From: Burkholderiaceae bacterium
GTDB lineage: Bacteria > Pseudomonadota > Gammaproteobacteria > Burkholderiales > Burkholderiaceae_E
Length of the DNA stretch: 64,000 nt
Direction of reading: 5' to 3'
Assembly (NCBI GenBank): GCA_050633665.1
Contig: JBOEGY010000006.1
Span: forward strand, 564,824 to 628,823
Below the pieces are notes generated by a model. The model did not search any database. It was given only the letters and a program-made list of their open reading frames with translations, and was not told the DNA's origin. The translations under genes and the position numbers were made by a program. This document shows positions 12,432 to 55,864 of this stretch, piece after piece (the first letter of the stretch is position 1; each line of letters begins with the position of its first letter).

Positions 12432-12443
12432 GGTCTGTCAGGC

Positions 12444-20775: not shown

Positions 20776-20867
20776 ATCGCTCTTTCAATCCGGTTTGATT
20801 CATCGGCCCGCTAGTCGCGGGCCGTTCGTTTTCCTGCGGCACTGTGTCGCGCTACTTCCGAAACCCC

Positions 20868-40028: not shown

Positions 40029-40104
40029 GCCGGCTTAGCTCAGTTGGTAGAGCAACCGCCTTGTAAGCGGTAGGTCGAGAGTTCGAGTCCCTCAGTCGGC
40101 ACCA
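40029..40104 (+). tRNA. tRNA-Thr (anticodon TGT), encoded CCA
   Basis: Folded by hand into a cloverleaf: acceptor GCCGGCT/AGTCGGC, D-arm GCTC-AGTTGGTA-GAGC, anticodon arm ACCGC-CTTGTAA-GCGGT, variable AGGTC, T-arm GAGAG-TTCGAGT-CCCTC, then ACCA. There is one A:C mismatch in the T-stem. Confidence 0.9.
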
Positions 40105-40161
40105 TTCCCGCAGCTTCGCAGCAGTTCACGCTCACAACCCATCTAATCGCTGTCCCGCCTC

Positions 40162-40929
40162 TCAGCTTCCTATGAAGCGTGGGGTGCGTTTTTCTACCCA
40201 TGCTGCCTGCCCCTCTTTCAAATCATCCGATTGCAGCGCGCGGGTGATATCGGCGTGGAGGGCGTTGGGGTCCAGACTGCCCCGGGCAATCGCGTTCAGG
40301 TGTTTTTTCATGCCGAGCAGGGCGATCGGCGCCATTGCGGCGCAGGCATCGGCGATTCGCGTAACTTCAGTGTGCAGTTGGTCGGCCTCAATGAGTTGCG
40401 TGAGATAGCCGATCGCTTTCATTTGCTCCGCGTCGATTTTCTCGGCTGTCAGGAAAAGTCGCTTGGTATTGTCGAGTCCGATTCGACTGACATAGCGCTC
40501 AAGCCCGCTCTGGTAGTAGTGCAGGCCGAGCCGGGCAGCGGGCATAAACATCTGGATGCCGCGGACACCGACCCTGAAGTCGCAGGCGAGCGCAAGGTCG
40601 GTTGCTCCACCATAGACGCCGCCGTGCAAGACCGCGATGGTGATTGGCCGGGCTTGCTCGACAGCGGTCACGACTTCCTCAAAATTCACCGAGCGTGTGC
40701 TCGTGCCAATCTGGGTGATGTTGTAACCGCTGCAGAAATACTTGCCGGTGCCGCACAGTTTCAGCACGAGCACTTCAGGTCGTTGATTGACGGCAGCGAT
40801 ATGGTCGGCGATTGCGGCGAGATCGTCCGGCCCGAGGCGGTTGGCCTGATCGGGGCGGCGCAAGGTGATGGTGGCGATCGCGCCGTTAAGCGTTAGTTCG
40901 GGGCTTTGCCCTTCAGTCTTGGTATTCAA
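40162..40929 (-). CDS. Enoyl-CoA hydratase/isomerase (crotonase) family protein
   Basis: 255 aa. Crotonase-fold motifs (KYFCSGYNI, ITIAVLHGGVYGGATDLALACDFRV). Confidence 0.85.
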   Translation of the reverse strand: MNTKTEGQSPELTLNGAIATITLRRPDQANRLGPDDLAAIADHIAAVNQRPEVLVLKLCGTGKYFCSGYNITQIGTSTRSVNFEEVVTAVEQARPITIAVLHGGVYGGATDLALACDFRVGVRGIQMFMPAARLGLHYYQSGLERYVSRIGLDNTKRLFLTAEKIDAEQMKAIGYLTQLIEADQLHTEVTRIADACAAMAPIALLGMKKHLNAIARGSLDPNALHADITRALQSDDLKEGQAAWVEKRTPRFIGS

Positions 40930-40939
40930 TGTCAGGTAC

Positions 40940-41758
40940 TCATTGGCCTATGAATTTCGGTTTACGTTTTTCCATGAATGCGCGGCGACCTTCCTGATAG
41001 TCGGCACTGTCGAAGCAGTGATCAACCAGCCTGGCCACCGGTTTGCTATCTGCCCCTGAAGTGTATTGCTCGTACAGGCGGACAGCCGCCTTGGCTGCGT
41101 GAATCGTAAGCGGTGCGTTGGCGACGATGCGCGCGGCATAGTCGCGCACGGTTTGTTCGAGTTCCTGAGGGGCCACTTCGTTATTGATCAAGCCAATTCG
41201 TAAGGCCTCGCCGGAATCCAGGAAGCGAGCGCTAAAGAGTAAGTCCTTGGTGTAGGAGGGGCCAATCAATCGCGCAAGCGCGGCGATACCTTCGTACTCG
41301 TAACCCAAACCGAGCTTCGCGGCCGGGATGCCGAAAGTGGCTGCGGTGCTTGCGATTCGAATATCGGCAGTAAGCGCAATCGCCAGTCCGCCACCGATGC
41401 AAAAACCGTCGATCATCGCGATCAGCGGCTTGTCGAGTTGACTTAAGCCTAGGCTCGCCCGCGCGGAAATCTCGCCGTAGTGTCGCTTTTGTTCCGCGTT
41501 GGCGCGATTGCTGTCAAATTCGCTTATGTCAGCGCCTGCCGCGAATGATTTTCCCCCGGCGCCGTGTATGACGATTACCCGAACGGTCTGGTCCGCCGAA
41601 AAGGCTTCTACCGCATCACCCAGGCCTTGCCACATTTCTAGTGACAACGCGTTGCGTCGTTCAGGGTGGTTGAGGGTGAGCCAGCCGATGCCGTCTTCAA
41701 TTCGCGCCACGATGCGAGTCGTTCTCAGGCAGACTTCGCGCGCGGCACTGGTTGTCAT
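40940..41758 (-). CDS. Enoyl-CoA hydratase/isomerase (crotonase) family protein
   Basis: 272 aa. KSFAAGADISEF and LIAMIDGFCIGGGLAIALTADIRIA motifs. Confidence 0.85.
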   Translation of the reverse strand: MTTSAAREVCLRTTRIVARIEDGIGWLTLNHPERRNALSLEMWQGLGDAVEAFSADQTVRVIVIHGAGGKSFAAGADISEFDSNRANAEQKRHYGEISARASLGLSQLDKPLIAMIDGFCIGGGLAIALTADIRIASTAATFGIPAAKLGLGYEYEGIAALARLIGPSYTKDLLFSARFLDSGEALRIGLINNEVAPQELEQTVRDYAARIVANAPLTIHAAKAAVRLYEQYTSGADSKPVARLVDHCFDSADYQEGRRAFMEKRKPKFIGQ

Positions 41759-42963
41759 TCAATGTCTCCGCTTTGCTTAAGCGTTTCAATATCGGCCGGT
41801 TCATAGCCCAGCTCGGCCAGCAGCTCATCGGTCTGTTCGCCGGGATCGGGAGCGGCGTGATGAAAGGCTTCCGGATGGGGCGATGCTGACAGGTTGATTG
41901 GCGAGCGAATCAGGGCGAGCTCACCAAGAACCGGATGGTGCGCGGGTCGGGTCATGCGAAGATGACGAACCTGAGGATCCTCGAAAGCTTCGCCAATGTT
42001 GTAGACAGGGCCGCAGGGAACGCCCGCCCGGTTTAGTTTCTCGACCAGCTCAGCGCAGGTGAGTTGACGTGTCAGCGCGTTGATTGCTGCATCGAGCTGA
42101 TGGCGGTGCTTAACCCGGTCTGCCGGTTCCCGATAATCGGGGTTGTCCTGTAACGAATCTGCCTCGAGCGCTTTACAAAAGCCGGCCCACATGTGGCGCG
42201 TGCTGGCGCAGATGTTCACCTGGCCGTCTTTGGCATCATAGGCGCTCATGGGGACCTGGGTCGGATGGGCATTGCCTTCCTGCCCGGCGACTTTGCCGTC
42301 GACGGTGTAACGCGTGGCCTGGAAGTCGAGCTTGTTCAGCATGCCTTCGATGAGTGACGTGGTCACCCACTGGCCTTCGCCAGTTCGTTCGCGGTGCAGC
42401 AGGGCGAGCAGTATTCCCTGCCCGAGAAACATGCCGGCCGTTGTGTCGGAAATCGCGATGCCGACCCGCATGGCGCCGCGACCGGGTTCGCCGGTTACCG
42501 AACTCAGGCCGGACATGCCTTGCACGATTTGGTCGACACCCGGTCGCGAGCAATACGGCCCATCCTGGCCGAAACCCGAGATGCTCGCGAGCACAACGCG
42601 CGGGTTGATGGCCTTTAGATGTTCATAGTCCAGACCGAGGCGTGTTTTGACTTCGGCGCGAAAGTTCTCAACGACGACATCGCTACGCTTGATCAGTTTT
42701 TGCAGGATCTTGGCGCCGTTAGCTGTTTTCAGGTCGACACAGATACTCCGCTTGTTGCGGTGCAGGTTCTGATCATCAGAGCCGCGGCGGCGTCCCGTGA
42801 CCGACCCGCGATCCATCCGGGCGAGTGGTTCAATCCGGGTGACGTCCGCACCCCAATCGGCGAGCAGGCGCACTGCGGTGGGACCGGCGCGGGCGATGGT
42901 CAGATCGAGCACCTTGAAACCCGACAAAGGCATTGATGAGGCGGTGGTGAGGGTCGTGGACAT
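41755..42963 (-). CDS. Family III (CaiB/BaiF) CoA-transferase
   Basis: 402 aa. LSGFKVLDLTIARAGPTAVRLLADWGADV, DVVVENFR and ISGFGQDGPY motifs. 4-nt overlap with the downstream crotonase gene. Confidence 0.9.
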   Translation of the reverse strand: MSTTLTTASSMPLSGFKVLDLTIARAGPTAVRLLADWGADVTRIEPLARMDRGSVTGRRRGSDDQNLHRNKRSICVDLKTANGAKILQKLIKRSDVVVENFRAEVKTRLGLDYEHLKAINPRVVLASISGFGQDGPYCSRPGVDQIVQGMSGLSSVTGEPGRGAMRVGIAISDTTAGMFLGQGILLALLHRERTGEGQWVTTSLIEGMLNKLDFQATRYTVDGKVAGQEGNAHPTQVPMSAYDAKDGQVNICASTRHMWAGFCKALEADSLQDNPDYREPADRVKHRHQLDAAINALTRQLTCAELVEKLNRAGVPCGPVYNIGEAFEDPQVRHLRMTRPAHHPVLGELALIRSPINLSASPHPEAFHHAAPDPGEQTDELLAELGYEPADIETLKQSGDIE

Positions 42964-42992
42964 GAGTTTTCCTGGAACAATCGGTGACAGAG

Positions 42993-44063
42993 TCAGCCGA
43001 CAAGTGCTACCCCTTCGGGGTCGACGAACAGCATCGACTGGTGGCCGATCTCAAAGACACAGGCTGGCGGTGCGTGGACTTTTATTTCGCAGCCGCCAGT
43101 CACTGGTCTGACCAGGTAGTCCCAGAACTCACCGAGATATGTGCGAGTGATGACTTCAACGGTGCCAATCTGGCGGGCTGCAGTCGGTGCTTCGTCGAGA
43201 AACAAGGCATGGGGACGAATCGATACCCGTTGCGAACGATTAGAGCTTGACGCTGAGCCGCTTACCGGAACGGTGCCGTCAAGCCCATCCAGATGAAGGT
43301 GGCCGTTGTCGAGCTGGCCTTCGATAAGATTCGTTTGACCGATGAATCCGGCGACAAACGGCGTGCGAGGTCGGTTGTACAGGTTCCAGGGGGTATCGAC
43401 TTGTTCGAGCTTCCCCTGGTTGATGACGGCAATCCGGTCCGATATGGTCATGGCTTCGGCCTGGTCGTGGGTGACATAGACCGTGGTGTAGTGAAATTCG
43501 TCGTGCAGGCGGCGGATCTCGCTGGCCATTTCTTCGCGCAAGTTGGCATCAAGATTAGACAACGGTTCGTCGAGCAGTAAAACTTCGGGGCGCACAATCA
43601 TGGCGCGGGCAAGCGCCACTCGTTGCTGCTGCCCGCCGGAAAGTTCGGCCGGGTAACGTCCGGCAAGCGCGTCAAGCTTGACCACTTCGAGCATTTCGGC
43701 GACACGGCGTCTGCGCTCCTCGCTCGGTACCCGGCGAACGTTCAGACCGAATGCGACGTTTTCTTCGACCGTCATGTTGGGCCAGATCGCGTAGCTCTGG
43801 AAAATCATGGACATGCCGCGACGTTCGGGCGGCACGGTTCGTGCTGCAGTCGAGATGGTCTGCCCATCGATTGCAATCGAACCGTCGCTTGGCTCAACAA
43901 AGCCGGCAATCATGCGCAAGGTCGTCGTTTTGCCACAGCCTGAAGGCCCCAGCAAGGTGACGAGCTCGCCTTTGTGAAGTTGCAGGTCGAGATTGTCGAC
44001 GACGGTAAGCCGACCATAGCGCTTGGTAAGTTGCGTGAGTTCGAGTTTGGTCATATTTTTCAT
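42993..44063 (-). CDS. ABC importer ATP-binding protein (PotA/FbpC type, with C-terminal regulatory domain)
   Basis: 356 aa. Walker A GPSGCGKTT, signature LSGGQQQRVALARA, Walker B LLLDEPLSNLD. Confidence 0.9.
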   Translation of the reverse strand: MKNMTKLELTQLTKRYGRLTVVDNLDLQLHKGELVTLLGPSGCGKTTTLRMIAGFVEPSDGSIAIDGQTISTAARTVPPERRGMSMIFQSYAIWPNMTVEENVAFGLNVRRVPSEERRRRVAEMLEVVKLDALAGRYPAELSGGQQQRVALARAMIVRPEVLLLDEPLSNLDANLREEMASEIRRLHDEFHYTTVYVTHDQAEAMTISDRIAVINQGKLEQVDTPWNLYNRPRTPFVAGFIGQTNLIEGQLDNGHLHLDGLDGTVPVSGSASSSNRSQRVSIRPHALFLDEAPTAARQIGTVEVITRTYLGEFWDYLVRPVTGGCEIKVHAPPACVFEIGHQSMLFVDPEGVALVG

Positions 44064-44071
44064 TGGGTTGA

Positions 44072-45772
44072 TTACCCACGTCGCAACATGAAGTCCCTGC
44101 CGGCAACGCGCATGCCGACCGCGACGACCAGAGTGACAATTACCACGAGAACGACTCCCATCGCAGCGAGGCTTTCATAGTTGCCTTGCTCACTTAAATC
44201 GAGGGTGAGGACGGAGACCACGCGAGAGGCGGGGCCGGTGAGGAAAACTGCCGTTGATAGTTCTTTGGTGCAAATCACGAACACGAGGACAAATGCACCG
44301 ACAAGCGTTTTGATCAACAAGGGCACCACTACTTTGCGTAAGACGGTGAGTCGGTTGCCGCCAAGAACACGTACCGCTTCTTCGAGTTCGGGGTTTAGTG
44401 AGCGTACTGCTGCACCACACGCTGTGACTGCAATCGGCAGGAACCGGGTCGTGAACGCCACGACGATCAAGGCGCCGGTGCCATACAGCGAGAATGGCGG
44501 TGAGGCGTAAGCGGCGTACAAACCGATTGCCAGAATCAGGCCAGGTACGGCAATTGGGGCGAGCGCCAGAAACTGGACCAGATTAGGCAGCGGGGTGATG
44601 CGCCGTTGCACGGCGTAAGCTACACAAAGTCCGACAATCACACAGATGAAAGCGGTAGCGGCAGAGTAGGTCACCGTGTTGATCAGCGCAGAGCGCACGG
44701 TAAGTTGCTGAAACAAGATGTCGTGAAAGTTGGCAAGCGTCAGGTTGTCTGGAGAAAGGCCACGGCCCCAGGCCTTTGAGAAAGAGGCTGAGATCAGGAT
44801 CGCCAACGGCAGAATGACCGTAAGCAGCGAGACCAACAGAGAAAAACCTAACAAGGGCCATTTCCAGACGCCAATTTCAAAGGGGCGACGCTCGCCGCCT
44901 TTTCCTGAAACAGATACAAAGCCTTTGCGTGCGAGCAACCGACGCTGCATGAACAACATGACAACCGTTAGCAGCAAGATGGGCATCGAGAACGCAGCCG
45001 CCTGTTCGACCCGTAATGGGTACTCGAAGAACGATACGATCTGGATGGTCGCCAGATTGATCCCGGCTGGAATGGCGAGCAACGCCGGGGTGCCGTACAG
45101 GGCGATGGTTTCAAGAAAAATCAAAATGCCGGCCCCGACGATAGACGGCAATACCAGTGGCAGCGTGACGCGGGTCAGCGTGCGGAACTTGCCGGCTCCG
45201 TGGATCGCAGCAGCGTCTTCCATTTCGGTGGAGACGAGGTCCAGGGCAGATTTGGTGAACACATAAATAAGCGGATAGACGTACAGCGCGATGACAAACG
45301 CCAGGCCCCAGAAGCTAAAGACATTGAACGGACCGGTCTCGGTTCCGAACAAGCCGTTCCAGGCCCGGTTCATCCAGCCGGCGTTCGGTCCGGCCAGAAG
45401 TATCCAGGCGATCGCGCCGAGAAAATTCGGCATGACGAACGCCGCCAGGACACTCATATGGGTGAAGCCACGGCCCGGCATGTCGGTACGTGAGACCGCC
45501 AGTGCCAGGGGCACGCCAATCGCAAGCGACACTGCAGTGACCGCGCCGCCCAGGTAGAGAGAGTTCAGCAACGCCTGTAAGTGGCGCGGCCGACTGAGCG
45601 CTTGAACGTAAGCGTTGACGGTCCAGTCGCCACTGGCTGAATGGAAGCTGTCCCAGACCAGACGCAGGATCGGATTGGCGACCAACACCACCAGAAACAG
45701 GATCAGGAGGGCGAACAGTAGCTTGGACGGGTCGAAATAGCGCCCCAGCGCGCTGGGACGCGCCAGGGGCAT
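44072..45772 (-). CDS. Two-domain ABC importer permease (FbpB-like)
   Basis: Duplicated MalFG-type permease architecture with about 12 TM segments. The start is taken at MPLARPSAL; the ORF-track start at 45814 overlaps the binding-protein gene. Confidence 0.85.
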   Translation of the reverse strand: MPLARPSALGRYFDPSKLLFALLILFLVVLVANPILRLVWDSFHSASGDWTVNAYVQALSRPRHLQALLNSLYLGGAVTAVSLAIGVPLALAVSRTDMPGRGFTHMSVLAAFVMPNFLGAIAWILLAGPNAGWMNRAWNGLFGTETGPFNVFSFWGLAFVIALYVYPLIYVFTKSALDLVSTEMEDAAAIHGAGKFRTLTRVTLPLVLPSIVGAGILIFLETIALYGTPALLAIPAGINLATIQIVSFFEYPLRVEQAAAFSMPILLLTVVMLFMQRRLLARKGFVSVSGKGGERRPFEIGVWKWPLLGFSLLVSLLTVILPLAILISASFSKAWGRGLSPDNLTLANFHDILFQQLTVRSALINTVTYSAATAFICVIVGLCVAYAVQRRITPLPNLVQFLALAPIAVPGLILAIGLYAAYASPPFSLYGTGALIVVAFTTRFLPIAVTACGAAVRSLNPELEEAVRVLGGNRLTVLRKVVVPLLIKTLVGAFVLVFVICTKELSTAVFLTGPASRVVSVLTLDLSEQGNYESLAAMGVVLVVIVTLVVAVGMRVAGRDFMLRRG

Positions 45773-45782
45773 CGATGTAGTC

Positions 45783-46826
45783 TCAGACACCGAAAGCATC
45801 CCGCCACAGTTCAATCACTTCCGGACGCTGAGCGACTGACTCCTCAGGCGTTGGGATCAGCACATTTTCGACATCATCCATACCGATCACACCCGGCAGA
45901 GGTTTGACGCCAGGGCGTCGTGGCACGCCGTATAATTCGCGCGTCAGTTGATCGGTATCGTCGCTGGAGATCAACCACTCGGAAAACAGCTTCGCCGCAT
46001 TCGGGTGTGGCGCATTGGCCAGGATGCCCGACGGCGAGACGATCATGACCGGGCCTTCCTTGGGCGCTACAGAGCCGATCGGGTTGCCCTTGGCTGCAAC
46101 CCGCGCAGCGAGCGTGAGCGGTCCGGCTGAGACGGAGCGTTCGCCCGAGTTCAAGGTGGTGACGGTATCGATAATTGACCGACCGACGTGTGGTTTGTTC
46201 GCCGCGAGTTTGTCAAACCATTCGTCTCCGTAGAGGCGTCGCATTTCGATCGCCCAGGTGCCGACCGCCCCGCTGAAGCCGGGGTGGCCGGTCGCGCCCA
46301 ACCCCATCCATTTGGGATCAAGCAGATCGGCCCAGCTCGTCGGCGCCTCTGCTGCGGTTACCTTGTTTGTGTTGTAGAGCAGGCCAACCATGAACAGGTT
46401 GGCTACATGAAAATAGCCATCGGGGTCGATGCCTTGCAGCCGCTTGTCCAGCCGGGACGTTGACTCCGGCGTGAACTGGGTGAGTAGCTTGCGTGCTTTC
46501 AGGTCCACATAGTGGCCGACATCTGTTGACGAGAACACATCGCAGTTGGCGCTGCTCGCCTTGATGTCCTGGTTCAGACGCTGGAAGGCGACTTGCGCCG
46601 TCGTGCGCACCACATTCACCTTGATGCCCGGATACCGCTTGGTGAAGGTGCGGCCCATGGTCTCGGCGTCTTCCGAGGGCAGAAATACGATGTACCAGGT
46701 GAGTTCACCTTCCTTCTTGGCAGCCTCGTACAGATTGGCGAGTGGGTCGGCCGCCCGGGCGTGAATCCAGGGGACTGCAAGCGTTGATGCTGCAAGCGTA
46801 TTGAAGCGTCGTCGGGTAATTGTCAT
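45783..46826 (-). CDS. Periplasmic solute-binding protein (Fe3+/polyamine-type family) with a twin-arginine-like signal
   Basis: MTITRRRFNTLAASTLAVPWIHARA, followed by a type-II SBP-like sequence. First gene of the ABC operon. Confidence 0.8.
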   Translation of the reverse strand: MTITRRRFNTLAASTLAVPWIHARAADPLANLYEAAKKEGELTWYIVFLPSEDAETMGRTFTKRYPGIKVNVVRTTAQVAFQRLNQDIKASSANCDVFSSTDVGHYVDLKARKLLTQFTPESTSRLDKRLQGIDPDGYFHVANLFMVGLLYNTNKVTAAEAPTSWADLLDPKWMGLGATGHPGFSGAVGTWAIEMRRLYGDEWFDKLAANKPHVGRSIIDTVTTLNSGERSVSAGPLTLAARVAAKGNPIGSVAPKEGPVMIVSPSGILANAPHPNAAKLFSEWLISSDDTDQLTRELYGVPRRPGVKPLPGVIGMDDVENVLIPTPEESVAQRPEVIELWRDAFGV

Positions 46827-46968
46827 GGCTGTCGCCTCCATTTGAGTTTGTTTTTGTTGCGCAATTTAGTGTACTCATAATTTATATAAATATGCAAAAC
46901 CTATTTATAAGTATTTTTATAGGGCGTCGTCGGGTAAACTTCACCTGGTTCATTCAGTCGGAAACCCT

Positions 46969-47949
46969 ATGCAAAGCACCGCGATCCAGTTCTCCCGCAA
47001 TGGCGACCCCGACGTGCTTGAAGTTGTGACCGTCGATGTGCCGGCGCTAGCCCCAGGTGAGGTCCGCATCCGCCAAACAGCAATCGGGCTCAACTTCGCT
47101 GATATCTATCAACGTAAAGGGGCTCATGGCCCGCAGGCGCCGACGCCGTTTCCGATCACACCGGGCTCGCAGGGGGCTGGTGTGATTGAGGCGGTGGGCG
47201 CCGATGTCGAAGGCTTTGCTGTTGGGCAGTCTGTTGCTTACTTTTTGCCCGGCGCCTACCAGACCGTCCGCAACGTACCAGCCGTGCGGGTACTAAAGCT
47301 GCCCGACGGGGTTTCGCAAGAACTCGCTGGCGCCAACCTGCTGCGCGGTCTCACGGCTGAGTATCTGTTGCGCCGGCTCTATGTGGTGCAGCCCGGCGAC
47401 ACCGTTCTGGTCCATGCCGCCGCTGGCGGGATGGGGGTGATCCTGACGCAGTGGGCAAGAGCCCTTGGCGCAACCGTCATCGGTACTGTCGGCTCCGCTG
47501 AGAAAGTAGACGTCGCACGTGCCAATGGTTGTCACCATGTCATTGACTATCGGGCTGAGGATTTCGTCGCAAGGACGCTCGAATTCACTTCAGGCGAAGG
47601 AGTCGCAGTCGTTTATGACGCCGTCGGCAAAGATGTCTTCGTGGCTTCTCTGCAATGTCTGCAGGTACTCGGCATGGCGATCAACTACGGTACCGCCTCC
47701 GGCGACGTCGAAGGGTTTGACCTGAACCTGCTCCATGCGAAATCGCTTCGGGTTTGTCGTCCAACCTTACGCAGTTTCATCGCGGACCCGGCAGATTTGC
47801 GCCAATCGGCGGACCGCTTCTTTGAGGCACTGAATCGCGGCCATGTGAGCCTGGCCGTTGGACAGCGGTTCGCGCTTACCGATGCGCGCGGCGCCCATCG
47901 CGCGCTTGAAGGTCGCTTAACTACCGGTGCGCCGGTATTGATTCCTTAA
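46969..47949 (+). CDS. NADPH:quinone oxidoreductase (MDR superfamily)
   Basis: 326 aa. GLNFADIYQRKG and the nucleotide fold VHAAAGGMGVILTQWA. Confidence 0.9.
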   Translation: MQSTAIQFSRNGDPDVLEVVTVDVPALAPGEVRIRQTAIGLNFADIYQRKGAHGPQAPTPFPITPGSQGAGVIEAVGADVEGFAVGQSVAYFLPGAYQTVRNVPAVRVLKLPDGVSQELAGANLLRGLTAEYLLRRLYVVQPGDTVLVHAAAGGMGVILTQWARALGATVIGTVGSAEKVDVARANGCHHVIDYRAEDFVARTLEFTSGEGVAVVYDAVGKDVFVASLQCLQVLGMAINYGTASGDVEGFDLNLLHAKSLRVCRPTLRSFIADPADLRQSADRFFEALNRGHVSLAVGQRFALTDARGAHRALEGRLTTGAPVLIP

Positions 47950-47973
47950 ACCCTTAAACAATAGGTAGCCCCA

Positions 47974-48753
47974 ATGACAATTAAGCTGTATCACGCATGG
48001 CTCTCAAGTGCCTCCCGGCGGGTTCGGTTGTGCCTGGCTGAAAAAGGGATTGCCTACGAAAGCTTGCCCGTGGACATGGGACGTCAAGAGCATCATTCAC
48101 CCGAATATCTGGCCTTAAATCCGGAGGGTGTGGTGCCGGCATTACTGACTGAAGCGGGGCAGTCCCTGCACGAGAGCTCAACAATCTGCGAGTACCTGGA
48201 CGATTGTTATGAAGAGCCACCGCTGCGCCCAAAAGATCCGTTTGCACGAGCGGTGATGCGCAATTTCGTGCGCTGGACTGATGACAAAGCCCTACCAAAC
48301 CTGCTCATTCTGAACTGGAGTATTGCCTTGCAGCCTGGAGCCAGTCAGTGGAGTGACGCCGAATTGAAGGAAAAACTGGCGCGGATTCCAAATGCCGAGA
48401 GACGCGAGGCCTGGGAGCGAATTGCGCGACGCCCCTATTCACCGGAGGAAAAGGCTGCTGCGCTTAATCGGCTGTTGAAAATCCTGGACAAAATGGAGGC
48501 GATGCTGGTCGATTCCCCTTGGTTGGTGGGCGAAGTCTTTTCTCTGGCTGATATTGCGGCGATTCCGTTTATTGCGCGAATCGAAGAGTTGGCGCCCGAT
48601 GCGCTGGCCGGCAATCATCTGCCTCAGGTTCGAGCCTGGTGGGCGGCTGTTCAACGACGAGCTTCGTGGAAAGAGGCGCGAATCGACCGGTTCGACCAGG
48701 CGTTGGCTGCGCGAGCAGCCAACGCCGCCGCCGGCGAGCCCGCGAACAGGTGA
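47974..48753 (+). CDS. Glutathione S-transferase family protein
   Basis: 259 aa. Thioredoxin-like N-domain (IKLYHAWLSSASRRVRLCLAEKGI...LNPEGVVPAL...ESSTICEYLDD) plus a helical C-domain. Confidence 0.85.
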   Translation: MTIKLYHAWLSSASRRVRLCLAEKGIAYESLPVDMGRQEHHSPEYLALNPEGVVPALLTEAGQSLHESSTICEYLDDCYEEPPLRPKDPFARAVMRNFVRWTDDKALPNLLILNWSIALQPGASQWSDAELKEKLARIPNAERREAWERIARRPYSPEEKAAALNRLLKILDKMEAMLVDSPWLVGEVFSLADIAAIPFIARIEELAPDALAGNHLPQVRAWWAAVQRRASWKEARIDRFDQALAARAANAAAGEPANR

Positions 48754-48787
48754 CTGAGAGGGTTAAAATAAGCGAATCAAACAAGGC

Positions 48788-48814
48788 AATGAGCTATGAA
48801 GCTAATGAGCTATG
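48788..48814 (+). repeat. Tandem direct repeat, 2 x AATGAGCTATG separated by AAGCT, 45 nt upstream of the GntR gene
   Basis: Read directly: aatgagctatg aagct aatgagctatg. Confidence 0.6.
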
Positions 48815-48858
48815 CCCATCGCGCGTCGGCGTTACCGGCTTGAACAATCACAGGACCC

Positions 48859-49521
48859 ATGGCGAACTCGAATCGTATCAACCTTAGTGCAAAGATTCGC
48901 GAAACACTTGAGGACGAGATAACGTCTGGTAAGTTGGTCGCGGGCGAGCATATCGATGAACAGGCACTGATGGATCGGTTCAGCGTCTCGCGTACGCCGG
49001 CGCGCGAGGCCATTTTGCAATTGCTGTCGCTTGGTCTTGTGACCAATATGCCGCGCCAGGGAGTGGTGGTTGCCCAGTTGTCGCTCGCCGAATATATCGC
49101 GATGCTGGAAATTCTGATGGCGCTTGAAGGGCTGGCTGCGCGGCTGGCTGCGCGACGTATGCCCGCATCGCAGCGCAAGTTGCTCAAGGATGCAAATAAG
49201 GCCTGCCGGCTTGCCGCAAAAAACGACGATCCGGCCGCCTATGGCGAGGCAAATCGCATTTTTCACGAGATCATTTATGACGGTAGCCTCAACGAGGTGC
49301 TGGCGCGCCAGCTGAGGGCCATGCGTCTGCGTATGCGTCACCCGAGGCGTGCCTTGTTCGATCGGCCCAGGCGTATGGTGAACTCGCTCGCTGAGCATCA
49401 GACATTGCTCGAGGCGATTGTTAGGGGCGACGAAGATGCTGCATTCGAAATTATGACTGAACACATTTCGAGCGGTGGCAACGTCTATGCAGACTCCATC
49501 GCCGAGATGAGTGATGCTTAG
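48859..49521 (+). CDS. GntR-family transcriptional regulator (FadR/FCD subfamily)
   Basis: 220 aa. Winged HTH (EQALMDRFSVSRTPAREAILQL) plus an all-helical FCD-like C-domain. Confidence 0.9.
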   Translation: MANSNRINLSAKIRETLEDEITSGKLVAGEHIDEQALMDRFSVSRTPAREAILQLLSLGLVTNMPRQGVVVAQLSLAEYIAMLEILMALEGLAARLAARRMPASQRKLLKDANKACRLAAKNDDPAAYGEANRIFHEIIYDGSLNEVLARQLRAMRLRMRHPRRALFDRPRRMVNSLAEHQTLLEAIVRGDEDAAFEIMTEHISSGGNVYADSIAEMSDA

Positions 49522-49587
49522 CCGTCGGCTGTCGCATGCCACCCGGACGATGTTCGCCTGGCCGGCATGCGTTAACGCGAGAAGAAC

Positions 49588-49614
49588 GAGGGGTCGAGCC
49601 CCTCAGTCGGTACC
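49588..49614 (+). repeat. Degenerate copy of a tRNA-Thr 3' half (T-arm + acceptor 3' strand); candidate att remnant that can also fold as a hairpin
   Basis: gaggggtcgagcccctcagtcggtacc versus tRNA 40076-40103 gagagttcgagtccctcagtcggcacc gives 23/27 identities in the same orientation. GAGGG/CCCTC forms a perfect 5-bp stem. Confidence 0.6.
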
Positions 49615-49615
49615 G

Positions 49616-50413
49616 CTAACTGGCAATGAGATCAAACCGTTTGATCCGATAGAGCATCAACGCCAATACCGAACTGAGCAAGGTGCAGGCCCCGATTACC
49701 CACAGGCTCCCGGAAGCGGCCGGGTAGTTCGAAAAAATCGCTACCCGAATCAAATCAAGCCAGTGTGCCAGAGGGTTCATTAGCGCCCATTCGCGCAAAT
49801 TACCCGGCAACGTCGCCAGCATGAAAAAGATGCCAGACGCAAAATACAACGGGCGCATGACTGCCGGAACAAATTTGCCGACGTCGGGCCGCCGGTTCGT
49901 CGCAATGGCCAGAATCAGACCGATCGCGCCGCTGAAAACCAGCAGACTAAGTACCAGGAAGACGAGCAGAAGCGGATTCTGAATCTGAACTGGAAACCCC
50001 AGCCACCAGGCAATGGCTGCCAGTACAATCGCAACGCTGATGAACATGATCAGTTCAACCAGCATCCTGGTGATCACGGTATCAATGGGTTTCACCGGGC
50101 TGAACCCCATCAGCCCTCGGTTTGATGCCATTGCCACCATGCATCGTGTGACGGTATTGCTGAATAACAACCATGGCGCAACGCCACTGGCAAGGAAGAC
50201 AGGGAAGCTGATGTTGGGCATGGTTCGCGCACTGAGCAGCCCGAATACAACCAGCAACGTGCCGATGTGTACCAGAGGCTCCAGCACGACCCACAGGTAG
50301 CCGAGGCGATGGTCGCCAAACCGGGTGCGTAACTCGCGCAGGTATAGGGCAAAGACAACCGCGCGTTGTACCTGCCACGCCGGACGTCTGCTTGGCGCTG
50401 AATAGACGTTCAT
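49616..50413 (-). CDS. ABC-2 type polysaccharide export permease (KpsM-like)
   Basis: 265 aa with about 6 TM segments. The N-terminal segment VVFALYLRELRTRFGDHRLGYLWVVLEPLVHI matches the KpsM/Wzm-type pattern. Confidence 0.8.
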   Translation of the reverse strand: MNVYSAPSRRPAWQVQRAVVFALYLRELRTRFGDHRLGYLWVVLEPLVHIGTLLVVFGLLSARTMPNISFPVFLASGVAPWLLFSNTVTRCMVAMASNRGLMGFSPVKPIDTVITRMLVELIMFISVAIVLAAIAWWLGFPVQIQNPLLLVFLVLSLLVFSGAIGLILAIATNRRPDVGKFVPAVMRPLYFASGIFFMLATLPGNLREWALMNPLAHWLDLIRVAIFSNYPAASGSLWVIGACTLLSSVLALMLYRIKRFDLIAS

Positions 50414-51228
50414 GATGACCAGAAATCAATCATTTGAAAGAGTCTTTCGCGGGTTAGGTGGTTGGTGCTGTGGTCTCCAGCGACGAAGTTCCGGTTATAG
50501 GACAGTCGCAGGTCGTCCAGTGAGGCGACCAGGCGGTTGACAGCCGAGACGTCGGCCGGATATTCCCCGTGCTCCAGGTGCAGCCTGGGTCGCGACGGAT
50601 ATCGGTACACGAAGTCATGCATATCGACCCAACTGCTGCCCACCTCGCGAATCTTTCGTTCCCAGTTCTGGAGCGAGTGGCGGCGGGTGCTCGCATAGTC
50701 GATTTGCGGGTTGATTGCGATAATGCCACCCACATCAAGCCAGAAACCGAAATACAGGGCTGCATAACCGCCCATCGAGCTGCCCAGCAGGTAAGTCTCT
50801 TTTACGCCGAGCCCGTTTTTCTCTAGCAGTCCGCTGATGAATCGGTGATGTCGAAGATTCATCGCCTTTTGATCATCGCCAAGGTAGTAGTGATGTGATT
50901 CATCCTTGAATACGATGTATAAGTCTTCGCTGCCGCTCATGTGTCGGTCGAAGAACCATGACCAGCGCTCGTACTTGCCAGGACTCATGCTGGAAAACGA
51001 GATAATCGCCTTGCGTGGGTTGGCACCGCACATGACCAGGGCGTCAATGCCGTTTTCCTGCACCACGAATCGCTCGAATGGCTTTGGCGTCGGGGGTGTT
51101 GGGGCTGCTTCGGCGCGGCCAGGGGGGGTGGGCGGCTGAGCCGGCAAAACCTGTGCGGCGATTGCGGGGGTGTCCAGCGGGGGGCTCGGATTGGTTCGCA
51201 CAGATGTCGGATCGGTGATCAACTTCAT
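50410..51228 (-). CDS. Alpha/beta-hydrolase-fold protein with a Pro-rich N-terminus (function unknown)
   Basis: 272 aa. Nucleophile-elbow motif LGSSMGGYAALYFG and a late GDHS segment that could supply the catalytic His. I recognise no specific family. Confidence 0.5.
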   Translation of the reverse strand: MKLITDPTSVRTNPSPPLDTPAIAAQVLPAQPPTPPGRAEAAPTPPTPKPFERFVVQENGIDALVMCGANPRKAIISFSSMSPGKYERWSWFFDRHMSGSEDLYIVFKDESHHYYLGDDQKAMNLRHHRFISGLLEKNGLGVKETYLLGSSMGGYAALYFGFWLDVGGIIAINPQIDYASTRRHSLQNWERKIREVGSSWVDMHDFVYRYPSRPRLHLEHGEYPADVSAVNRLVASLDDLRLSYNRNFVAGDHSTNHLTRERLFQMIDFWSS

Positions 51229-51908
51229 GCCGGGACGGTTGCAGATGAGACGACGTCGTCAAATTGCCGGAAAGGCAAATGGGGTCGCAGAAGCGAATGC
51301 TCGCTGCAATTGACTAACTGGCAGCCGGCTTGCGCCATGACCTTGGAGGCATTGGCGATGTTCCAAATCTGAACTGACGTAAACGAGTCTTCAATCTGGG
51401 GGTTGGCTTCAGTGTAGCAACGAGGCGATTCGGCGCTGTATCGTAAATCAACCCCCATCAGGAAAACCCGTCGGCATCCCATAAAGGCCGCAAGCTGAAT
51501 CGCAAGCATGGTTGTCGTGCACCCATAGAAAAATCCGGCGGACAAGTCTGCTGAAAAACCGTCTCGCTTGATATGCGGCGTGTAAGTGGTTCGATCTGCG
51601 AATGCCGGATCGTCATCGGCTTCCAGGTCGGCGCGCAGCACTCGAATCGTGCTGGCGTCTAAGTCGCTGGTCGCCCATCTTCGTTTGACCGGGTGGGTGA
51701 GGAATCGGCGATCAGAAACAACGTAGTAGTCCTGAATGAATCCGAACCGACTCTGGAGGCTGGTCGATCCGTTCATGCCGATGACCAGCTTGTCAGTCAG
51801 TTTGGTCAGGTCTTCGTTTAGAACAGAAGGGCCGTTTCCCAGAATAAAAACATCTTTGTCCTGCTCTTTGTTACGCAAACTTCCGGCGACGTCAAAGTAC
51901 ATTGTCAT
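51225..51908 (-). CDS. Hypothetical protein, DUF115/MptE-like or GT42 sialyltransferase-like
   Basis: 227 aa. DVFILGNGPSV...VIGMNGS near the N-terminus and GCRRVFLMGVDLRYS later. The resemblance is recalled from memory and is not verified. Confidence 0.4.
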   Translation of the reverse strand: MTMYFDVAGSLRNKEQDKDVFILGNGPSVLNEDLTKLTDKLVIGMNGSTSLQSRFGFIQDYYVVSDRRFLTHPVKRRWATSDLDASTIRVLRADLEADDDPAFADRTTYTPHIKRDGFSADLSAGFFYGCTTTMLAIQLAAFMGCRRVFLMGVDLRYSAESPRCYTEANPQIEDSFTSVQIWNIANASKVMAQAGCQLVNCSEHSLLRPHLPFRQFDDVVSSATVPA

Positions 51909-52881
51909 AGACCTTAATATACGGTTTGATCAGTGCTTCGGGCCGAAGATGCTCGCAATAGTAGTCATAGCTCTCCTGCTGTAACCGGCGGGTCAGCTCA
52001 AAGTCGTCAGACAGATTAATCAGTAATTCCTGAGCCGTTTGCTCGTCGGCATAGGTAAACGGCGGAAGATCTTCAGTGTCTGCACATTGGGCCATCATGG
52101 CTCTGCAAAAAAAGTCGGCCCGGTTCACTACAATATTGCCCGCGCACAGACCTTCAAGGGAAACCTGGTGGAAAGCACCGGTCACTATTTCATCAATGGT
52201 CACGTGGCAGGTTTTACGCAGAAACATCAGGGTTGATGGCGACAGTGGCTTCTCAGGTGTCACCAGTTCAATCTTGCCCAATGTGGCCAAGGCCTCGAGA
52301 ATTTTCATCAGGGAATCGGAACATTTCGAGTTCCAGCGTCCACCGCGGGTGTGACTCGGGCTGAACAACACACGCAGCGGCTCACCTTGCTTACGCAAAT
52401 TGATCGTCGGTTGATCCAGCACCAAATTCGGCACCGGCGTGTAATCGGGGTAATGGCGTGGTTGGTATTGACCCACGACCAATCGTGCCCGAAAAGGCAG
52501 CCTGATGGTTTTTGCCCGTTCATAGTACAGAGGGCCTTCACCAAGCGGCGAATGGACTTGATAGACGTATGCGGCGCGAGGCGCAAGACCTTGAATCCAG
52601 TCCTGTTGCTCCGCAGGCAGGTCATTATGGACATGAATGATGTCAGCCTGGGCGAGGGCATGGTCTATCGAGTCGAGGCAGTAGTCATCGGCGTTATCAA
52701 CGATAAGTGAATCGGCGATAAATTTCCCGGACAGTGGGCCGCCGGACGGATAATCGCGCAAACAAATATGCAGGGCTTCGAAGCCGTTGGTATTCAGGAC
52801 CCGGGTTACTTTCGCCGGAGCGCCGACCAGCGGGGTCGGACTGATATGAATGACGTTAACGGACATCGAACAGCATTCCAT
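51892..52881 (-). CDS. Divergent GT-B-like glycosyltransferase (hypothetical)
   Basis: 329 aa. C-terminal half has RVLFSPSHTRGGRWNSK and FHQVSLEGLCAGNIVV, resembling the GT4 EX7E region. The start could instead be the Met at 52866. Confidence 0.45.
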   Translation of the reverse strand: MECCSMSVNVIHISPTPLVGAPAKVTRVLNTNGFEALHICLRDYPSGGPLSGKFIADSLIVDNADDYCLDSIDHALAQADIIHVHNDLPAEQQDWIQGLAPRAAYVYQVHSPLGEGPLYYERAKTIRLPFRARLVVGQYQPRHYPDYTPVPNLVLDQPTINLRKQGEPLRVLFSPSHTRGGRWNSKCSDSLMKILEALATLGKIELVTPEKPLSPSTLMFLRKTCHVTIDEIVTGAFHQVSLEGLCAGNIVVNRADFFCRAMMAQCADTEDLPPFTYADEQTAQELLINLSDDFELTRRLQQESYDYYCEHLRPEALIKPYIKVYDNVL

Positions 52882-54940
52882 CTCTCAGGGCCAGGCGAAT
52901 CAGATCGCTCGCTGACTCGCCATTTTCAACGGCCTCGCATAACGAGCGATATCGCATATAGACCGAATCCAGAACAAGCATTCGTTTTATGCTTGGCGCC
53001 ATGTTGCGCAGATAGTCGTCCAGGCAGTCGGCCTTGATTGCGCGCATTTCGCCAAGCTCGATAATCCCCTGAAATCTATTCGGATCAAACCCGAACAACT
53101 CAGGGTCGTAATCGTTCGCACCGATCAGTGGCAGCAACATGTCGGGCTGCTTGGGGCCCAGTTCCTGGACGACGCGTCGAATCGTTGCCGGGAGGTTTTC
53201 GGCCCGCAAGAACGGGGTACTTCGTCGCCAGGGGGCAGGGCTGGACGGGGCGCAGCGATTGTCGAAAATCAGGGCGTCGGTTGATACCGGGTCTAGTGGC
53301 AGATCTGCCGGAGCCCGGTCGGTCAGAATCAAAACGGTTTTTCCGGTCGGCATGCAAGCCTTGAATGCTCGAATCAGGTGGGCTGGGGTATCGACGAAGA
53401 AGACAAAATCGAATGTTTCGATTTTCTCTTTGTTCTTGCGATCAATGCGTTCAATGATTGAATCGTCCGTCTGATCGATCAGGTCGTCGTATTCGAACAA
53501 AGACAGGTTACGGGTCTGGGTGGGCGAAAAGTCTTCAAAACAATCCAGGTTCGCGCAAAGCTGGGCGATTCGTTCACGGTCACCACTGTCATGAGCCAGG
53601 CCGGTGGTCCAGCCATTGGCTTTTTTGTTCGGCAGATCGATCTTGATGAAGTCTGTTTTCTTGATCCGACTGACCAGTTGCCGCTCGGGATAGCGGCTCG
53701 CTCTGCTGGCCGGTTTGATATTCAGTCCTGACGCGGTGTTGAAAACTTGTCGGGTGACGGCGGCGTGAGCCTCTGGACGAGTTAGCGTACTGCGCAGCGT
53801 TGAATCCAGCCAGAACTGATTCGGATCGCGCACCAGTTTGCGCACTTTTCGTTGCAATATACGGCTGCGTTGTGTCCAGTCCGTGCGGTTCATTCTCTTG
53901 ATTTCCTGGGTCAAAGTCTGCCTGATATTGGTGTGGTCTGGCGAGCTCAAAGGAGGAATCGACGCAGGTCGAGTCTGTCGTAACAGGGTGTTGGTGGCCA
54001 TATCGAATCCACAGTTTATTCGTGAGATCGCTTCATCAACGTTCGAAATACGGGTCTCTTTCAGCGCTGATTCAACTTTAGTCGCAAGGTCATCCAGGCT
54101 GAACGGCTTCGCGTGATACAGAAGATCGTTGCCCGCGTATTCTGTTAAGCCCAGGTGTGACCAGCAGACTATTCGACAACCCGCTGCGAGAGCCTCTAGT
54201 CCAACCATCGAGGCGGTCTCAAATTGACTCGGAATGATGACGACTTTTGATCTGGACAGCGCTTCGGCTCGTTTCGCCGGCGTGTCGGCGGCTAGCGCGA
54301 TCGCGTTTCGCGGCAATCGCAAATCTTGAGCGGCAGTGGCGAGTGCAAAGCGACAATCGGGCAGCCGCTTTATCAGTGCGCGCACATAGTCCCGTCCTTT
54401 CAGTGACTGCCAGCGCCCCAGAAACAAGACATCAATATCGGGTTGTCTGCGGCGGGTTTCGCTCGGCGGCGCCGGGTTTGGATAGACGACAACGCCATCG
54501 GGAAGTCTGAAAGACATATTGCCGGCGGTTACCGCAGCCTGAGAGGGCGCGGAAATCATCCACGCCCGGTCCAGTAGTTCTTGCTCTAGTGTCTGGGCTG
54601 TTTCGTCTACCGGCAGGCCCTGGAGTCTGGCGCCGAGATCTCTGGAGCCATGTAGCCGAACGTGTATGAGCCAGCGCTTGTCGATATGTCGTGCGGCGGC
54701 AAGCGTTTCCGGGACTTCAACAATTGCACCGGGGCGGGCGGTTCGCGCGAGCTCACGTGGCAGCCTCTTGGCGAAGGCCTCGATGGATTCATCAGCTTGT
54801 CGGGTGATCTGGGTGATCGAGTCGGCTTGTTGCCGGAGGCGTTCGCCAGCAAGCTGACAATAACGCGTTACGCCGCTTGTATGCGATGAGAAGGGATCGA
54901 CCAGGACGTAGCTCGCCCGGGCCTGGTCAGGTCTAACCAC
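52856..54940 (-). CDS. 694-aa protein: N-terminal GT4-type glycosyltransferase domain plus ~350-aa uncharacterised C-terminal region
   Basis: GT4 signature VVIIPSQFETASMVGLEALAAGCRIV at about aa 240-265. I cannot assign the downstream region (RKVRKLVRDPNQFWLDS ... DFVFFVDTPAHLIRAF ...). Confidence 0.6.
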   Translation of the reverse strand: MVRPDQARASYVLVDPFSSHTSGVTRYCQLAGERLRQQADSITQITRQADESIEAFAKRLPRELARTARPGAIVEVPETLAAARHIDKRWLIHVRLHGSRDLGARLQGLPVDETAQTLEQELLDRAWMISAPSQAAVTAGNMSFRLPDGVVVYPNPAPPSETRRRQPDIDVLFLGRWQSLKGRDYVRALIKRLPDCRFALATAAQDLRLPRNAIALAADTPAKRAEALSRSKVVIIPSQFETASMVGLEALAAGCRIVCWSHLGLTEYAGNDLLYHAKPFSLDDLATKVESALKETRISNVDEAISRINCGFDMATNTLLRQTRPASIPPLSSPDHTNIRQTLTQEIKRMNRTDWTQRSRILQRKVRKLVRDPNQFWLDSTLRSTLTRPEAHAAVTRQVFNTASGLNIKPASRASRYPERQLVSRIKKTDFIKIDLPNKKANGWTTGLAHDSGDRERIAQLCANLDCFEDFSPTQTRNLSLFEYDDLIDQTDDSIIERIDRKNKEKIETFDFVFFVDTPAHLIRAFKACMPTGKTVLILTDRAPADLPLDPVSTDALIFDNRCAPSSPAPWRRSTPFLRAENLPATIRRVVQELGPKQPDMLLPLIGANDYDPELFGFDPNRFQGIIELGEMRAIKADCLDDYLRNMAPSIKRMLVLDSVYMRYRSLCEAVENGESASDLIRLALRDGMLFDVR

Positions 54941-55084
54941 AAGAGACTTTCGCAGCCGGTTAATAAAGAAGTGGCGAACGCCTCGTTAAGCGGCGTCATC
55001 GAACTTTGATTATCGACACCTCGGGTGCGGCCAATTCCGTAAAAAGGAAAGCAGAAACCGGCTTTATCGGCTCTATCGAATGGA

Positions 55085-55864
55085 TCAGCCCACGCTGGTC
55101 TTGTCGCGCAGATGGCGACCGGCGGTGGCGGATCGAGTTTGGCCAAGTTCGTTGCCGATCAGCGCACCAATGACCAGGCAGCCGCCCCAAAGGGTGGCGT
55201 CCGCAGGGCGTTCGCCAACGCCCAGCCAGACCCATACCGGGCCAAAAACGACTTCCAGCAATAGAATCATCGCGACTTCCTGTGGCGCGAGATACCGGGC
55301 TGCAATGACAATCAGACTGCACGGCAAGCCCAGTTGAAAGACTCCAAGGGCTGCCAGCCAGGCAATGTCGCGACCAGTTGCGCTTACCGGGAAGAGTAAC
55401 GGCAGCATCAACAACGAGGATATGGCTGCGCCAATCAGGATTGCCGGCAGAAAATCGATTTGCCCCTGGTTTTTCTTGAGCAAGATCAGATTGGTGGCTG
55501 AGGCCAGAGGGACTGCGGCGGCGATCAGCATTCCCCAGTGGCTGTGGGGCAGGCTGTCCTCAGACAGTAGCCCATCCGACACCATCCAGATGCACCCCAG
55601 TGCGGCGACGGTTATCGCCAGCCAGGTGTGTGGCGCAATTCGTTCGCTCAGAAAGAGCCGCGCCATCAATGCGGCCACTAACGGCGCTATCGCGATGAGG
55701 ATCAATGCGTTGGCAACAGTCGTCAGAGTCAGCGCGACTGAAAAGCAGGTGAACATGACTGCCCAGAGCATGCCCGACAGCAAGATTGGCCAGCCGCCCC
55801 GGCGCAGTTCGCGCGTCCAGTGCTGCCGTTCGCGTGCGATCAGGATGGCCAGCAAGAAAATCAA
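55085..55864 (-). CDS. EamA/DMT-family transporter (the N-terminus as called is probably truncated)
   Basis: 259 aa from TTG, with about 9 TM segments. A further 65 in-frame codons upstream encode a typical first TM helix but contain no ATG, GTG or TTG (see findings). Confidence 0.8.
   Translation of the reverse strand: MIFLLAILIARERQHWTRELRRGGWPILLSGMLWAVMFTCFSVALTLTTVANALILIAIAPLVAALMARLFLSERIAPHTWLAITVAALGCIWMVSDGLLSEDSLPHSHWGMLIAAAVPLASATNLILLKKNQGQIDFLPAILIGAAISSLLMLPLLFPVSATGRDIAWLAALGVFQLGLPCSLIVIAARYLAPQEVAMILLLEVVFGPVWVWLGVGERPADATLWGGCLVIGALIGNELGQTRSATAGRHLRDKTSVG

Follow-up and report, generated by a model that had tools for sequence, protein, structure and literature searches.

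We analysed a 64,000-nucleotide (nt) stretch of DNA from a Burkholderiaceae bacterium (assembly GCA_050633665.1, contig JBOEGY010000006.1, positions 564,824 to 628,823 of the forward strand; hereafter the window), in which an earlier note had singled out five tightly packed genes ending with that of a KpsM-type permease. These genes form the operon p1-p2-p3-p4-kpsM, on the minus strand at 49616-54940, as delimited from the listing of open reading frames (ORFs). In order of transcription they are p1 (52856-54940; 694 amino acids (aa), with a GTG start), p2 (51892-52866; 324 aa from the Met codon at 52866, the ORF itself running to 52881 and giving 329 aa), p3 (51225-51908; 227 aa, or 225 aa in database gene calls), p4 (50410-51228; 272 aa) and, as the last gene of the operon, kpsM (p5; 49616-50413; 265 aa). 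The ORF listing reproduced the overlaps described in the note, which measure 4 nt between p4 and kpsM (ATGA, 50410-50413), 4 nt between p3 and p4 (51225-51228), 17 nt between p2 and p3 (51892-51908) and 26 nt between p1 and p2 (52856-52881), or 11 nt if translation of p2 begins at Met6 (52866), the start seen in every 324-aa homologue. Pfam and NCBIfam agreed with its rough family calls as well, assigning p1 to glycosyltransferase family 4 (GT4), p3 to the MptE-like proteins, p4 weakly to the alpha/beta-hydrolases and the fifth protein to the ABC-2/KpsM permeases (ABC, ATP-binding cassette), while p2 had no match in a Pfam scan. The comparisons below indicate that this operon is very probably the region-2 half, together with the permease gene, of a group-2-type (kps) capsule system that resembles the Escherichia coli K15 system and is split over two chromosomal sites.

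The permease aligned with KpsM proteins along its whole length. It matched PF01061 (ABC2_membrane) at 64.6 bits and the NCBIfam KpsM model NF050053, by far its best-scoring model, at 153.3 bits over profile positions 3-256 of 257, and it gave an end-to-end match (183 bits, residues 8-262) to chain C of 8TSH, the solved KpsMT-KpsE complex. Its homologues form a tight clade in related Burkholderiaceae, with identities of 67-73%, beyond which the next values are no higher than 43%. The KpsM of the K15 locus is 43% identical. The kpsT-linked KpsM (P0129) of the Burkholderiaceae metagenome-assembled genome (MAG) SGMAG-27 (GCA_045106815.1), the closest named relative, is 69% identical. An exact-sequence copy of the window KpsM was not found, and near-identical copies were reached through homologue searches.

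A permease of this type without capsule partners in the window was the central observation of the earlier note, and it was borne out by tblastn with the proteins of three complete kps loci, which detected no homologue of KpsT, KpsE, KpsD, KpsC or KpsS in the 64 kb and returned only generic ABC ATPases (at most 27% identity) and the housekeeping kdsD/kdsC. A separate ABC ATPase (27% identical to a KpsT) and ABC-2 permease (21% identical to a KpsM) are encoded at 20844-22525 of the window; this pair is a generic ABC-2 exporter rather than a kps partner.

The missing partners were found at a remote locus of a nearly identical genome. The KpsT of SGMAG-27, used as a query, led to an 82% identical protein of 218 aa (P0220) encoded on the 715,731-bp contig JBFPEM010000169.1, which also carries the five-gene operon (locus L055) and to which the window is 99.76% identical over 20.8 kb. 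On this contig kpsM lies at 102,018-102,815 and kpsT at 437,169-437,825, about 334 kb apart, the latter within an export locus at approximately 427-448 kb (L063) in which kpsS-kpsC are divergent from kpsT-kpsE-kpsD-kpsF. Compared with their SGMAG-27 counterparts (L059), KpsE (397 aa, encoded right after kpsT) is 71% identical, KpsD (525 aa, PF02563) is 79% identical, and KpsC (692 aa) and KpsS (426 aa), both of PF05159, are 61% and 47% identical, respectively. The flanking genes, encoding LysR, major facilitator superfamily, EmrA-like, MarR and PagP-like proteins, are also those of SGMAG-27. By tblastn, kpsM was absent from this export locus, and the spacer on the kpsC side runs straight into kpsT. 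Three further conspecific assemblies have the same kpsM-less export locus, and one of them, GCA_041156745.1, also has the operon (L056).

Because the conspecific export locus lacks exactly kpsM, the apparent orphan status of the permease gene can be attributed to a split of the locus. Judged from gene content, the lone permease is the match for the exporter that lacks one, such that kpsM appears relocated rather than orphaned and the unusual feature would be its separation from kpsT. The components that define group-2 systems, namely KpsMT, KpsE/D and KpsC/S, are all present, the partners by way of the conspecific genome, whereas the single contiguous locus with regions 1, 2 and 3 is not. Thus, of the two possibilities offered in the earlier note, that of a module using partners encoded elsewhere is upheld by kpsTEDF and kpsCS, about 334 kb away in the conspecific genome, and that of a non-canonical exporter is not.

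SGMAG-27 provides the closest parallel to this arrangement. Its export module has the order kpsS-kpsC / kpsM-kpsT-kpsE-kpsD-kpsF, with flanks common to the window organism, and its p1-p2-p3 set stands alone on another contig (L008). It differs from the window organism in that its kpsM adjoins kpsT and its trio lacks p4 and kpsM. Since its biosynthetic trio and export module are at separate sites, on separate contigs, split loci already exist in this lineage, providing an independent precedent.

What the other four genes encode became apparent from comparison with the K15 capsule locus of E. coli 536 (L071), our K15 reference. The K15 locus of strains 536 and F8316/41 has the order kpsM-kpsT-ORF1-ORF5-kpsC-kpsS, and its polymer is 4)-alpha-GlcNAc-(1→5)-alpha-Kdo-(2→, partly O-acetylated (PMC7387560; GlcNAc, N-acetylglucosamine; Kdo, 3-deoxy-D-manno-oct-2-ulosonic acid). 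Azurmendi et al. (2020) predicted a GlcNAc transferase for ORF1, an O-acetyltransferase for ORF5 and, from models based on Maf and CstII, a Kdo transferase of the Maf/CstII type for ORF4, and assigned no role to ORF2 and ORF3 (PMC7387560). On sequence comparison, p1-p4 are colinear homologues of ORF1-ORF5 with ORF1 and ORF2 fused, the common order being GT4, ORF2-like, ORF3-like GT-B, CstII/Maf-like ORF4 and alpha/beta-hydrolase ORF5, and the homology being significant for ORF2-ORF5. There are also clear differences. The ORF1 and ORF2 counterparts are fused in the 694-aa p1, the GT4 part of which is distantly related to ORF1; kpsM follows the biosynthetic genes, whereas in K15 it precedes them together with kpsT; kpsT/E/D/F/C/S of the window organism are about 334 kb away; and the GC content of the operon is approximately 55%, versus approximately 31% in K15 regions 2 and 3. 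The suggestion that the operon is a mere accessory that modifies an existing glycan was not sustained, as the operon holds the complete region-2 complement, the serotype-specific part, of a K15-like capsule.

In p1, residues 200-296 matched PF00534 (Glycos_transf_1) at 36.3 bits (cut-off 26.4), a match confined to the first half of the protein, and blastp against K15 ORF1, which Pfam also classes as GT4-type, gave a weak match of 31% identity over 91 aa (E = 0.002). We therefore regard the N-terminal half as a predicted GT4-type retaining glycosyltransferase similar to ORF1. The C-terminal domain (52859-53908, minus strand; approximately 350 aa) corresponds to K15 ORF2 (27005-27994 of L071): in a search of nine sequences, a p1-family hidden Markov model matched ORF2 with 80 bits and E = 6e-26 (profile positions 361-677, ORF2 residues 2-308). 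This domain is conserved from E. coli K15 to the Burkholderiaceae and starts with a basic motif, RKxxKLxRxPxxFFxDS. Taken together, the two matches indicate that p1 is a fusion of the ORF1 and ORF2 counterparts, and full-length p1 homologues were present in 20 loci. Profile searches found no PDB relative of the C-terminal domain, members scanned singly had no Pfam family, and a single-sequence AlphaFold2 model of p1 had a mean predicted local distance difference test (pLDDT) score of only 36. An origin of the ORF2-like domain from a GT107-like Kdo transferase was unsupported, with hhalign probabilities below 1% against KpsC, KpsS, p2 and the N-terminal half of p1. Two variants of p1 were seen elsewhere: in Acinetobacter corruptisaponis (L026) the p1 match is in two pieces on opposite strands, and in Cupriavidus (L002/L013) there is an insertion between the two halves.

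The second protein, p2, belongs to a highly conserved family that lacks a name. All 225 homologues at 45-60% identity were annotated as hypothetical, and K15 ORF3 is 38.5% identical (E = 6e-80). An AlphaFold2 model built on 28 homologues (pLDDT 90.2; predicted template modelling score 0.89) has a GT-B fold, and its best Foldseek matches in the PDB were retaining GT4 enzymes, namely BshA (3MBO; E = 2e-10, TM score 0.65), T4 alpha-glucosyltransferase, PglA and WaaG. BshA is a GT4 enzyme that uses UDP-GlcNAc. The model thus suggests that p2 is a compact, GT4-like GT-B glycosyltransferase, a resemblance at the level of the fold only. Single-sequence PDB searches with p1, p2 and p3 gave nothing useful, and p2 had no match in a plasmid collection. 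The beta-Kdo transferases KrkA/GT140 and GT99/GT107 (PMC12887879), considered as relatives of p1-p3, showed no sequence link to them, and the p2 fold is GT4-like. Distant p2 homologues (25-37% identity) occur in Microlunatus, Propionibacteriaceae, Acidobacteriota, Holosporales and others, spanning Gram-positive bacteria and other phyla (L034-L054), and in two of these loci (L046 and L049) the GT-B gene is duplicated. Because no kps genes were detected with these distant homologues, and p3 only as a single weak match in L043, the p2 GT-B family seems to be broader than Kdo capsules.

The third protein, p3, carries the sequence FILGNGPS, which includes the GNGPS motif, and scored 40.9 bits against PF01973 (MptE-like; gathering score 34.6), also known as DUF115, a family that we take to include Maf and the WaaZ-type ulosonic-acid transferases. 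Its identity with K15 ORF4 is 46.9% (E = 3e-65), and the sole PDB match of a p3-family profile was a weak one (E = 0.04), through the GNGPS region, to the Campylobacter jejuni CstII sialyltransferases. From these similarities p3 is a putative CMP-Kdo-dependent Kdo transferase.

The similarity of p3 to WaaZ bears on another explanation of the operon, in which KpsM dispenses with KpsT or relies on some unrelated ATPase for export, or in which the genes decorate the lipopolysaccharide core, with p3 acting on Kdo as a WaaZ-like enzyme. No ATPase is encoded in or near the operon, the only NCBIfam matches of p3 are the WaaZ Kdo-III transferase models, and in a related species described below kpsM stands alone beside an eamA gene, all of which would be expected under this explanation. 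The p3 scores against these models (TIGR04437/NF007333) are, however, 40.3 and 29.7 bits, far below the equivalog cut-offs of 200 and 473; a kpsT of the cognate type that lacks a kpsM is present in the same, conspecific, genome; and we know of no ATPase-independent mode of action for ABC-2 permeases. The genomic company of p2 and p3, which is kps genes in most loci as detailed below, with no lipopolysaccharide-core genes noted beside them in the loci with listed annotation, also argues against it, and we consider this explanation highly improbable.

For p4, the Pfam family Abhydrolase_6 was hit below its cut-off (23.1 versus 26.3 bits), K15 ORF5 is 28.7% identical (E = 1e-23), and the PDB matches were SacC (6YUO; E = 0.0019) and, weakly, Asp2. 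At least 13 of the 14 family members compared, K15 ORF5 among them, retain the elbow G149-x-S151-M-G-G, including G153 and G154, as well as D226 and H253. We suggest that p4 is a putative capsule O-acetyltransferase with an alpha/beta-hydrolase fold and a Ser-Asp-His triad, of the type of CsaC/SacC from Neisseria meningitidis serogroup A, with which it has in common the alpha/beta-hydrolase signature, the GxSxGG elbow and the conserved Asp and His, although the sequence similarity is marginal and the substrate polymer differs. The capsule O-acetyltransferases of this fold also include OatC. Homologues of p4 were found in at least 12 kps loci. An Enterobacterales MAG (L032) has two tandem p4 paralogues, and the low-GC enterobacterial trio at that locus had no DNA match in E. 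coli genomes.

A survey of other genomes, in which a scan with a p2-family alignment (one genome per species, 45 loci) was followed by tblastn, showed that these genes habitually travel with capsule genes. The search for co-occurrence proposed in the earlier note was answered by the recurrence of the p1-p3 set inside kps loci: p2 is next to p3 in 25 loci, and in 20 of these kps export or linker genes are no more than 10 kb away, most of the other five being truncated contigs on which kdsA, kdsB or kpsF is nevertheless present. The typical order is kpsM-kpsT-kpsE-kpsD-[p1-p2-p3]-(methyltransferase/p4)-kdsA/kdsB/kpsF-kpsC-kpsS, and complete loci were seen, for example, in Sphaerotilus, Cupriavidus, Pseudomonas, Brucella pseudogrignonensis, Acinetobacter and Catenovulum. 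The canonical group-2 loci (for example, those of the uncultured betaproteobacterium MFD04651, L007/L010; Sphaerotilus natans, L012; Cupriavidus consociatus, L013; and Pseudomonas spp., L003 and L019-23) resemble the window system in p1-p3 (30-61% identity) and p4 (29-57%), in the KpsMT/E/D and KpsC/S machinery and in genes for Kdo supply, and they differ from it in being contiguous, with kpsM always accompanied by kpsT.

The separation of kpsM from kpsT therefore stands out, as kpsM clustered with kpsT in all 17 surveyed loci in which it was seen. As to whether the arrangement had already been described, a point raised in the earlier note, the gene set has been, as that of E. coli K15 (PMC7387560), whereas the unlinked kpsM has no counterpart in these 17 loci, and nothing relevant to such a separation emerged from a full-text search of the literature. 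The rkp K-antigen system of Sinorhizobium meliloti, a kps-type system with separate chromosomal and megaplasmid loci (PMC2864759), offers a parallel in its multi-site layout.

A separated capsule locus could also be a decaying one, torn by rearrangement, with the five genes unused and becoming pseudogenes. The lack of contiguity with the export genes is compatible with decay, as is the retention of kpsM alone in the related species, and in one conspecific assembly, GCA_041156745.1, kpsE is called at 341 aa rather than 397 aa (L060, 10629-11654) and p2 at 320 aa rather than 324 aa (L056, 7560-8522). Either a misassembly or damage to the capsule system in this strain may account for the two short calls. 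Against decay, all five proteins are intact and 98-100% identical in four other assemblies, such that the five ORFs and their tight overlaps are preserved in five assemblies; the gene missing from the export locus is the very one carried here, which speaks for complementation; and kpsM has an approximate ratio of nonsynonymous to synonymous substitution (dN/dS) of 0.14 relative to the copy of the related species (L058), itself unlinked, across 27% protein divergence, similar to the 0.10-0.13 obtained with kpsT-linked copies. These ratios suggest that kpsM appears to be under purifying selection and to have continued in function. We consider decay very improbable and retain the split, functional capsule system as the preferred explanation.

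The related species (GCA_041156645.1, L058) also informs the history of the locus. At 1770-2567 of L058 an intact kpsM, whose product is 73% identical to the window KpsM, stands by itself, flanked by eamA on one side and tRNA-Thr on the other. Neither region-2 genes nor a kpsT are nearby, the tRNA-Thr is intact and 28 nt from the kpsM stop codon, and the flanking housekeeping genes are 77-83% identical to those of the window at the nucleotide level. One candidate for the KpsT of this genome, P0219, was rejected since it belongs to marine contigs with ordinary kpsM-kpsT linkage. In the marine relatives kpsM-kpsT-kpsE-kpsD-kpsF are together, and therefore the unlinked kpsM is the derived state. 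Because the L058 kpsM also stands between eamA and tRNA-Thr, the data suggest that kpsM had moved to this site before the window and L058 lineages parted, after which region-2 genes either entered the window lineage, between eamA and kpsM, or were lost from that of L058.

In the window, the sequence beyond kpsM is a remnant of a tRNA-Thr 3' end (approximately 49585-49612), comprising the T-arm and acceptor strand, that starts 3 nt past the kpsM stop codon and was recognized by alignment with tRNA-Thr at 40029-40104; the tRNA remnant reported in the earlier note is thus a degenerate copy of this 3' end. Its hairpin and a T-rich tail form a terminator-like site on the minus strand at 49605-49587. 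The tRNA-Thr(tgt) and its degenerate 3'-end copy bracket a 9.5-kb block (40029-49612) encoding two enoyl-CoA hydratases, a CoA-transferase, an ABC importer, a zinc-dependent alcohol dehydrogenase, a glutathione S-transferase and a GntR regulator, and L058, in which kpsM directly adjoins the tRNA, has no such block. The segment resembles an island that entered at tRNA-Thr and has no integrase, an event separate from, and unrelated to, the capsule genes.

This position beside a tRNA raises the question of whether the five genes arrived together at tRNA-Thr as a recent serotype-switching island that replaced an older region 2. In addition to kpsM adjoining the tRNA-Thr 3' end in L058 and the remnant in the window, such an origin is favored by the GC content at third codon positions (GC3) of p2 and p3, which is approximately 1.3-1.8 standard deviations under the window mean. 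The comparison of 49616-54940 with the rest of the window that the earlier note had proposed nevertheless placed the operon near background, since it falls only slightly short of the rest in GC and codon usage (GC3 0.59-0.68 versus 0.66 ± 0.04) and its codon usage is inside the background spread (pooled Jensen-Shannon distance 0.016, and likewise gene by gene). In addition, no integrase or insertion sequence element is present, the tRNA and its remnant bracket the neighboring metabolic segment and not the operon, and KpsM groups with chromosomal KpsM proteins of related Burkholderiaceae (67-73% identity). A recent mobile cassette is thus improbable, and the split capsule system remains the reading that we favor.

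Upstream of the operon, p1 is separated by a 144-nt spacer (54941-55084, minus strand) from a co-directional eamA gene (55085-55864, from precomputed Pfam annotation), and the operon promoter is presumed to lie in this spacer. A promoter scan detected no σ70 consensus in the 144 nt, and no ops/JUMPStart element was found upstream of p1, GGCGGTAG occurring only at 3566 of the window. The spacer showed no convincing similarity to the one between eamA and kpsM in L058.

Together, the two sites would account for a complete capsule pathway. In group-2 capsules KpsS and KpsC build a beta-Kdo linker on phosphatidylglycerol, and those of the export locus would do so here. Priming of this linker may fall to either of the GT-B enzymes or to the ORF2-like domain; the concept of priming the beta-Kdo linker comes from PMC11666461, and the ORF2-like domain and p2/ORF3 are candidates for the role. 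The N-terminal half of p1 and/or p2, using a UDP-sugar that by analogy with K15 would be UDP-GlcNAc, could then alternate with p3, using CMP-Kdo, to produce a hexosamine-Kdo polymer, which p4 would O-acetylate through its Ser-Asp-His triad. That the polymer is specifically GlcNAc-Kdo is a tentative proposal, made by analogy, in which we have less confidence than in the split of the locus. KpsM from the operon would pair with the remotely encoded KpsT, and KpsE and KpsD would take the lipid-linked polymer across the envelope. CMP-Kdo would be supplied through kdsD and kdsC of the window, kpsF of the export locus and kdsA and kdsB, presumed to be elsewhere in the genome. The window genes belong to a housekeeping kdsD-kdsC-lptC-lptA-lptB cluster (10924-14613) and cover two of the CMP-Kdo steps that the capsule module needs; this goes some way to explaining the lack of kds genes in the operon itself.

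Several points weigh against this account. The kpsT locus was seen in a genome 99.76% identical to the window and not in the window's own assembly, and a second kpsM elsewhere in the conspecific genome is possible, as loci rather than whole genomes were compared. The KpsM score of 153 bits is lower than the 300-bit NCBI equivalog cut-off, and the dN/dS values for kpsM are approximate since dS is saturated (1.5-2.5). The weak relationship of the p1 GT4 domain to K15 ORF1 (E = 0.002) makes the sugar partner of Kdo uncertain, and the functions of the K15 ORFs are themselves bioinformatic predictions (PMC7387560). The lone kpsM of L058, without region-2 genes, is not accounted for by the model itself. 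Finally, the split capsule is predicted here from its genes.

Going further, one could read the unlinking of kpsM and kpsT as a stable, selected architecture, and the ORF2-like domain and p2/ORF3 as new types of Kdo-capsule enzymes, readings that we consider rather unlikely. The unlinked kpsM is common to the second species, represented by L058, and the permease would be co-translated with the polymer-specific enzymes in the window organism. If the unlinking has been selected, KpsM could aid polymer-specific recognition or assembly of a biosynthesis-export complex; if the enzymes are of new types, the ORF2-like domain and p2/ORF3 could represent a transition or priming transferase or a new glycosyltransferase family.

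In sum, the apparent anomaly of a lone permease gene is removed if it is one half of a split capsule exporter. The gene set to which it belongs is a little-studied, K15-type Kdo-capsule set, widespread in environmental Proteobacteria, in which the ORF1 and ORF2 counterparts are usually fused. The ORF2-like domain and the ORF3-like GT-B protein, which are conserved between E. coli and the Burkholderiaceae, would be reasonable targets for studies of the priming and polymerization of Kdo-containing capsules, and the separation of kpsM from kpsT may serve as a natural experiment on the importance of keeping the two exporter genes linked.

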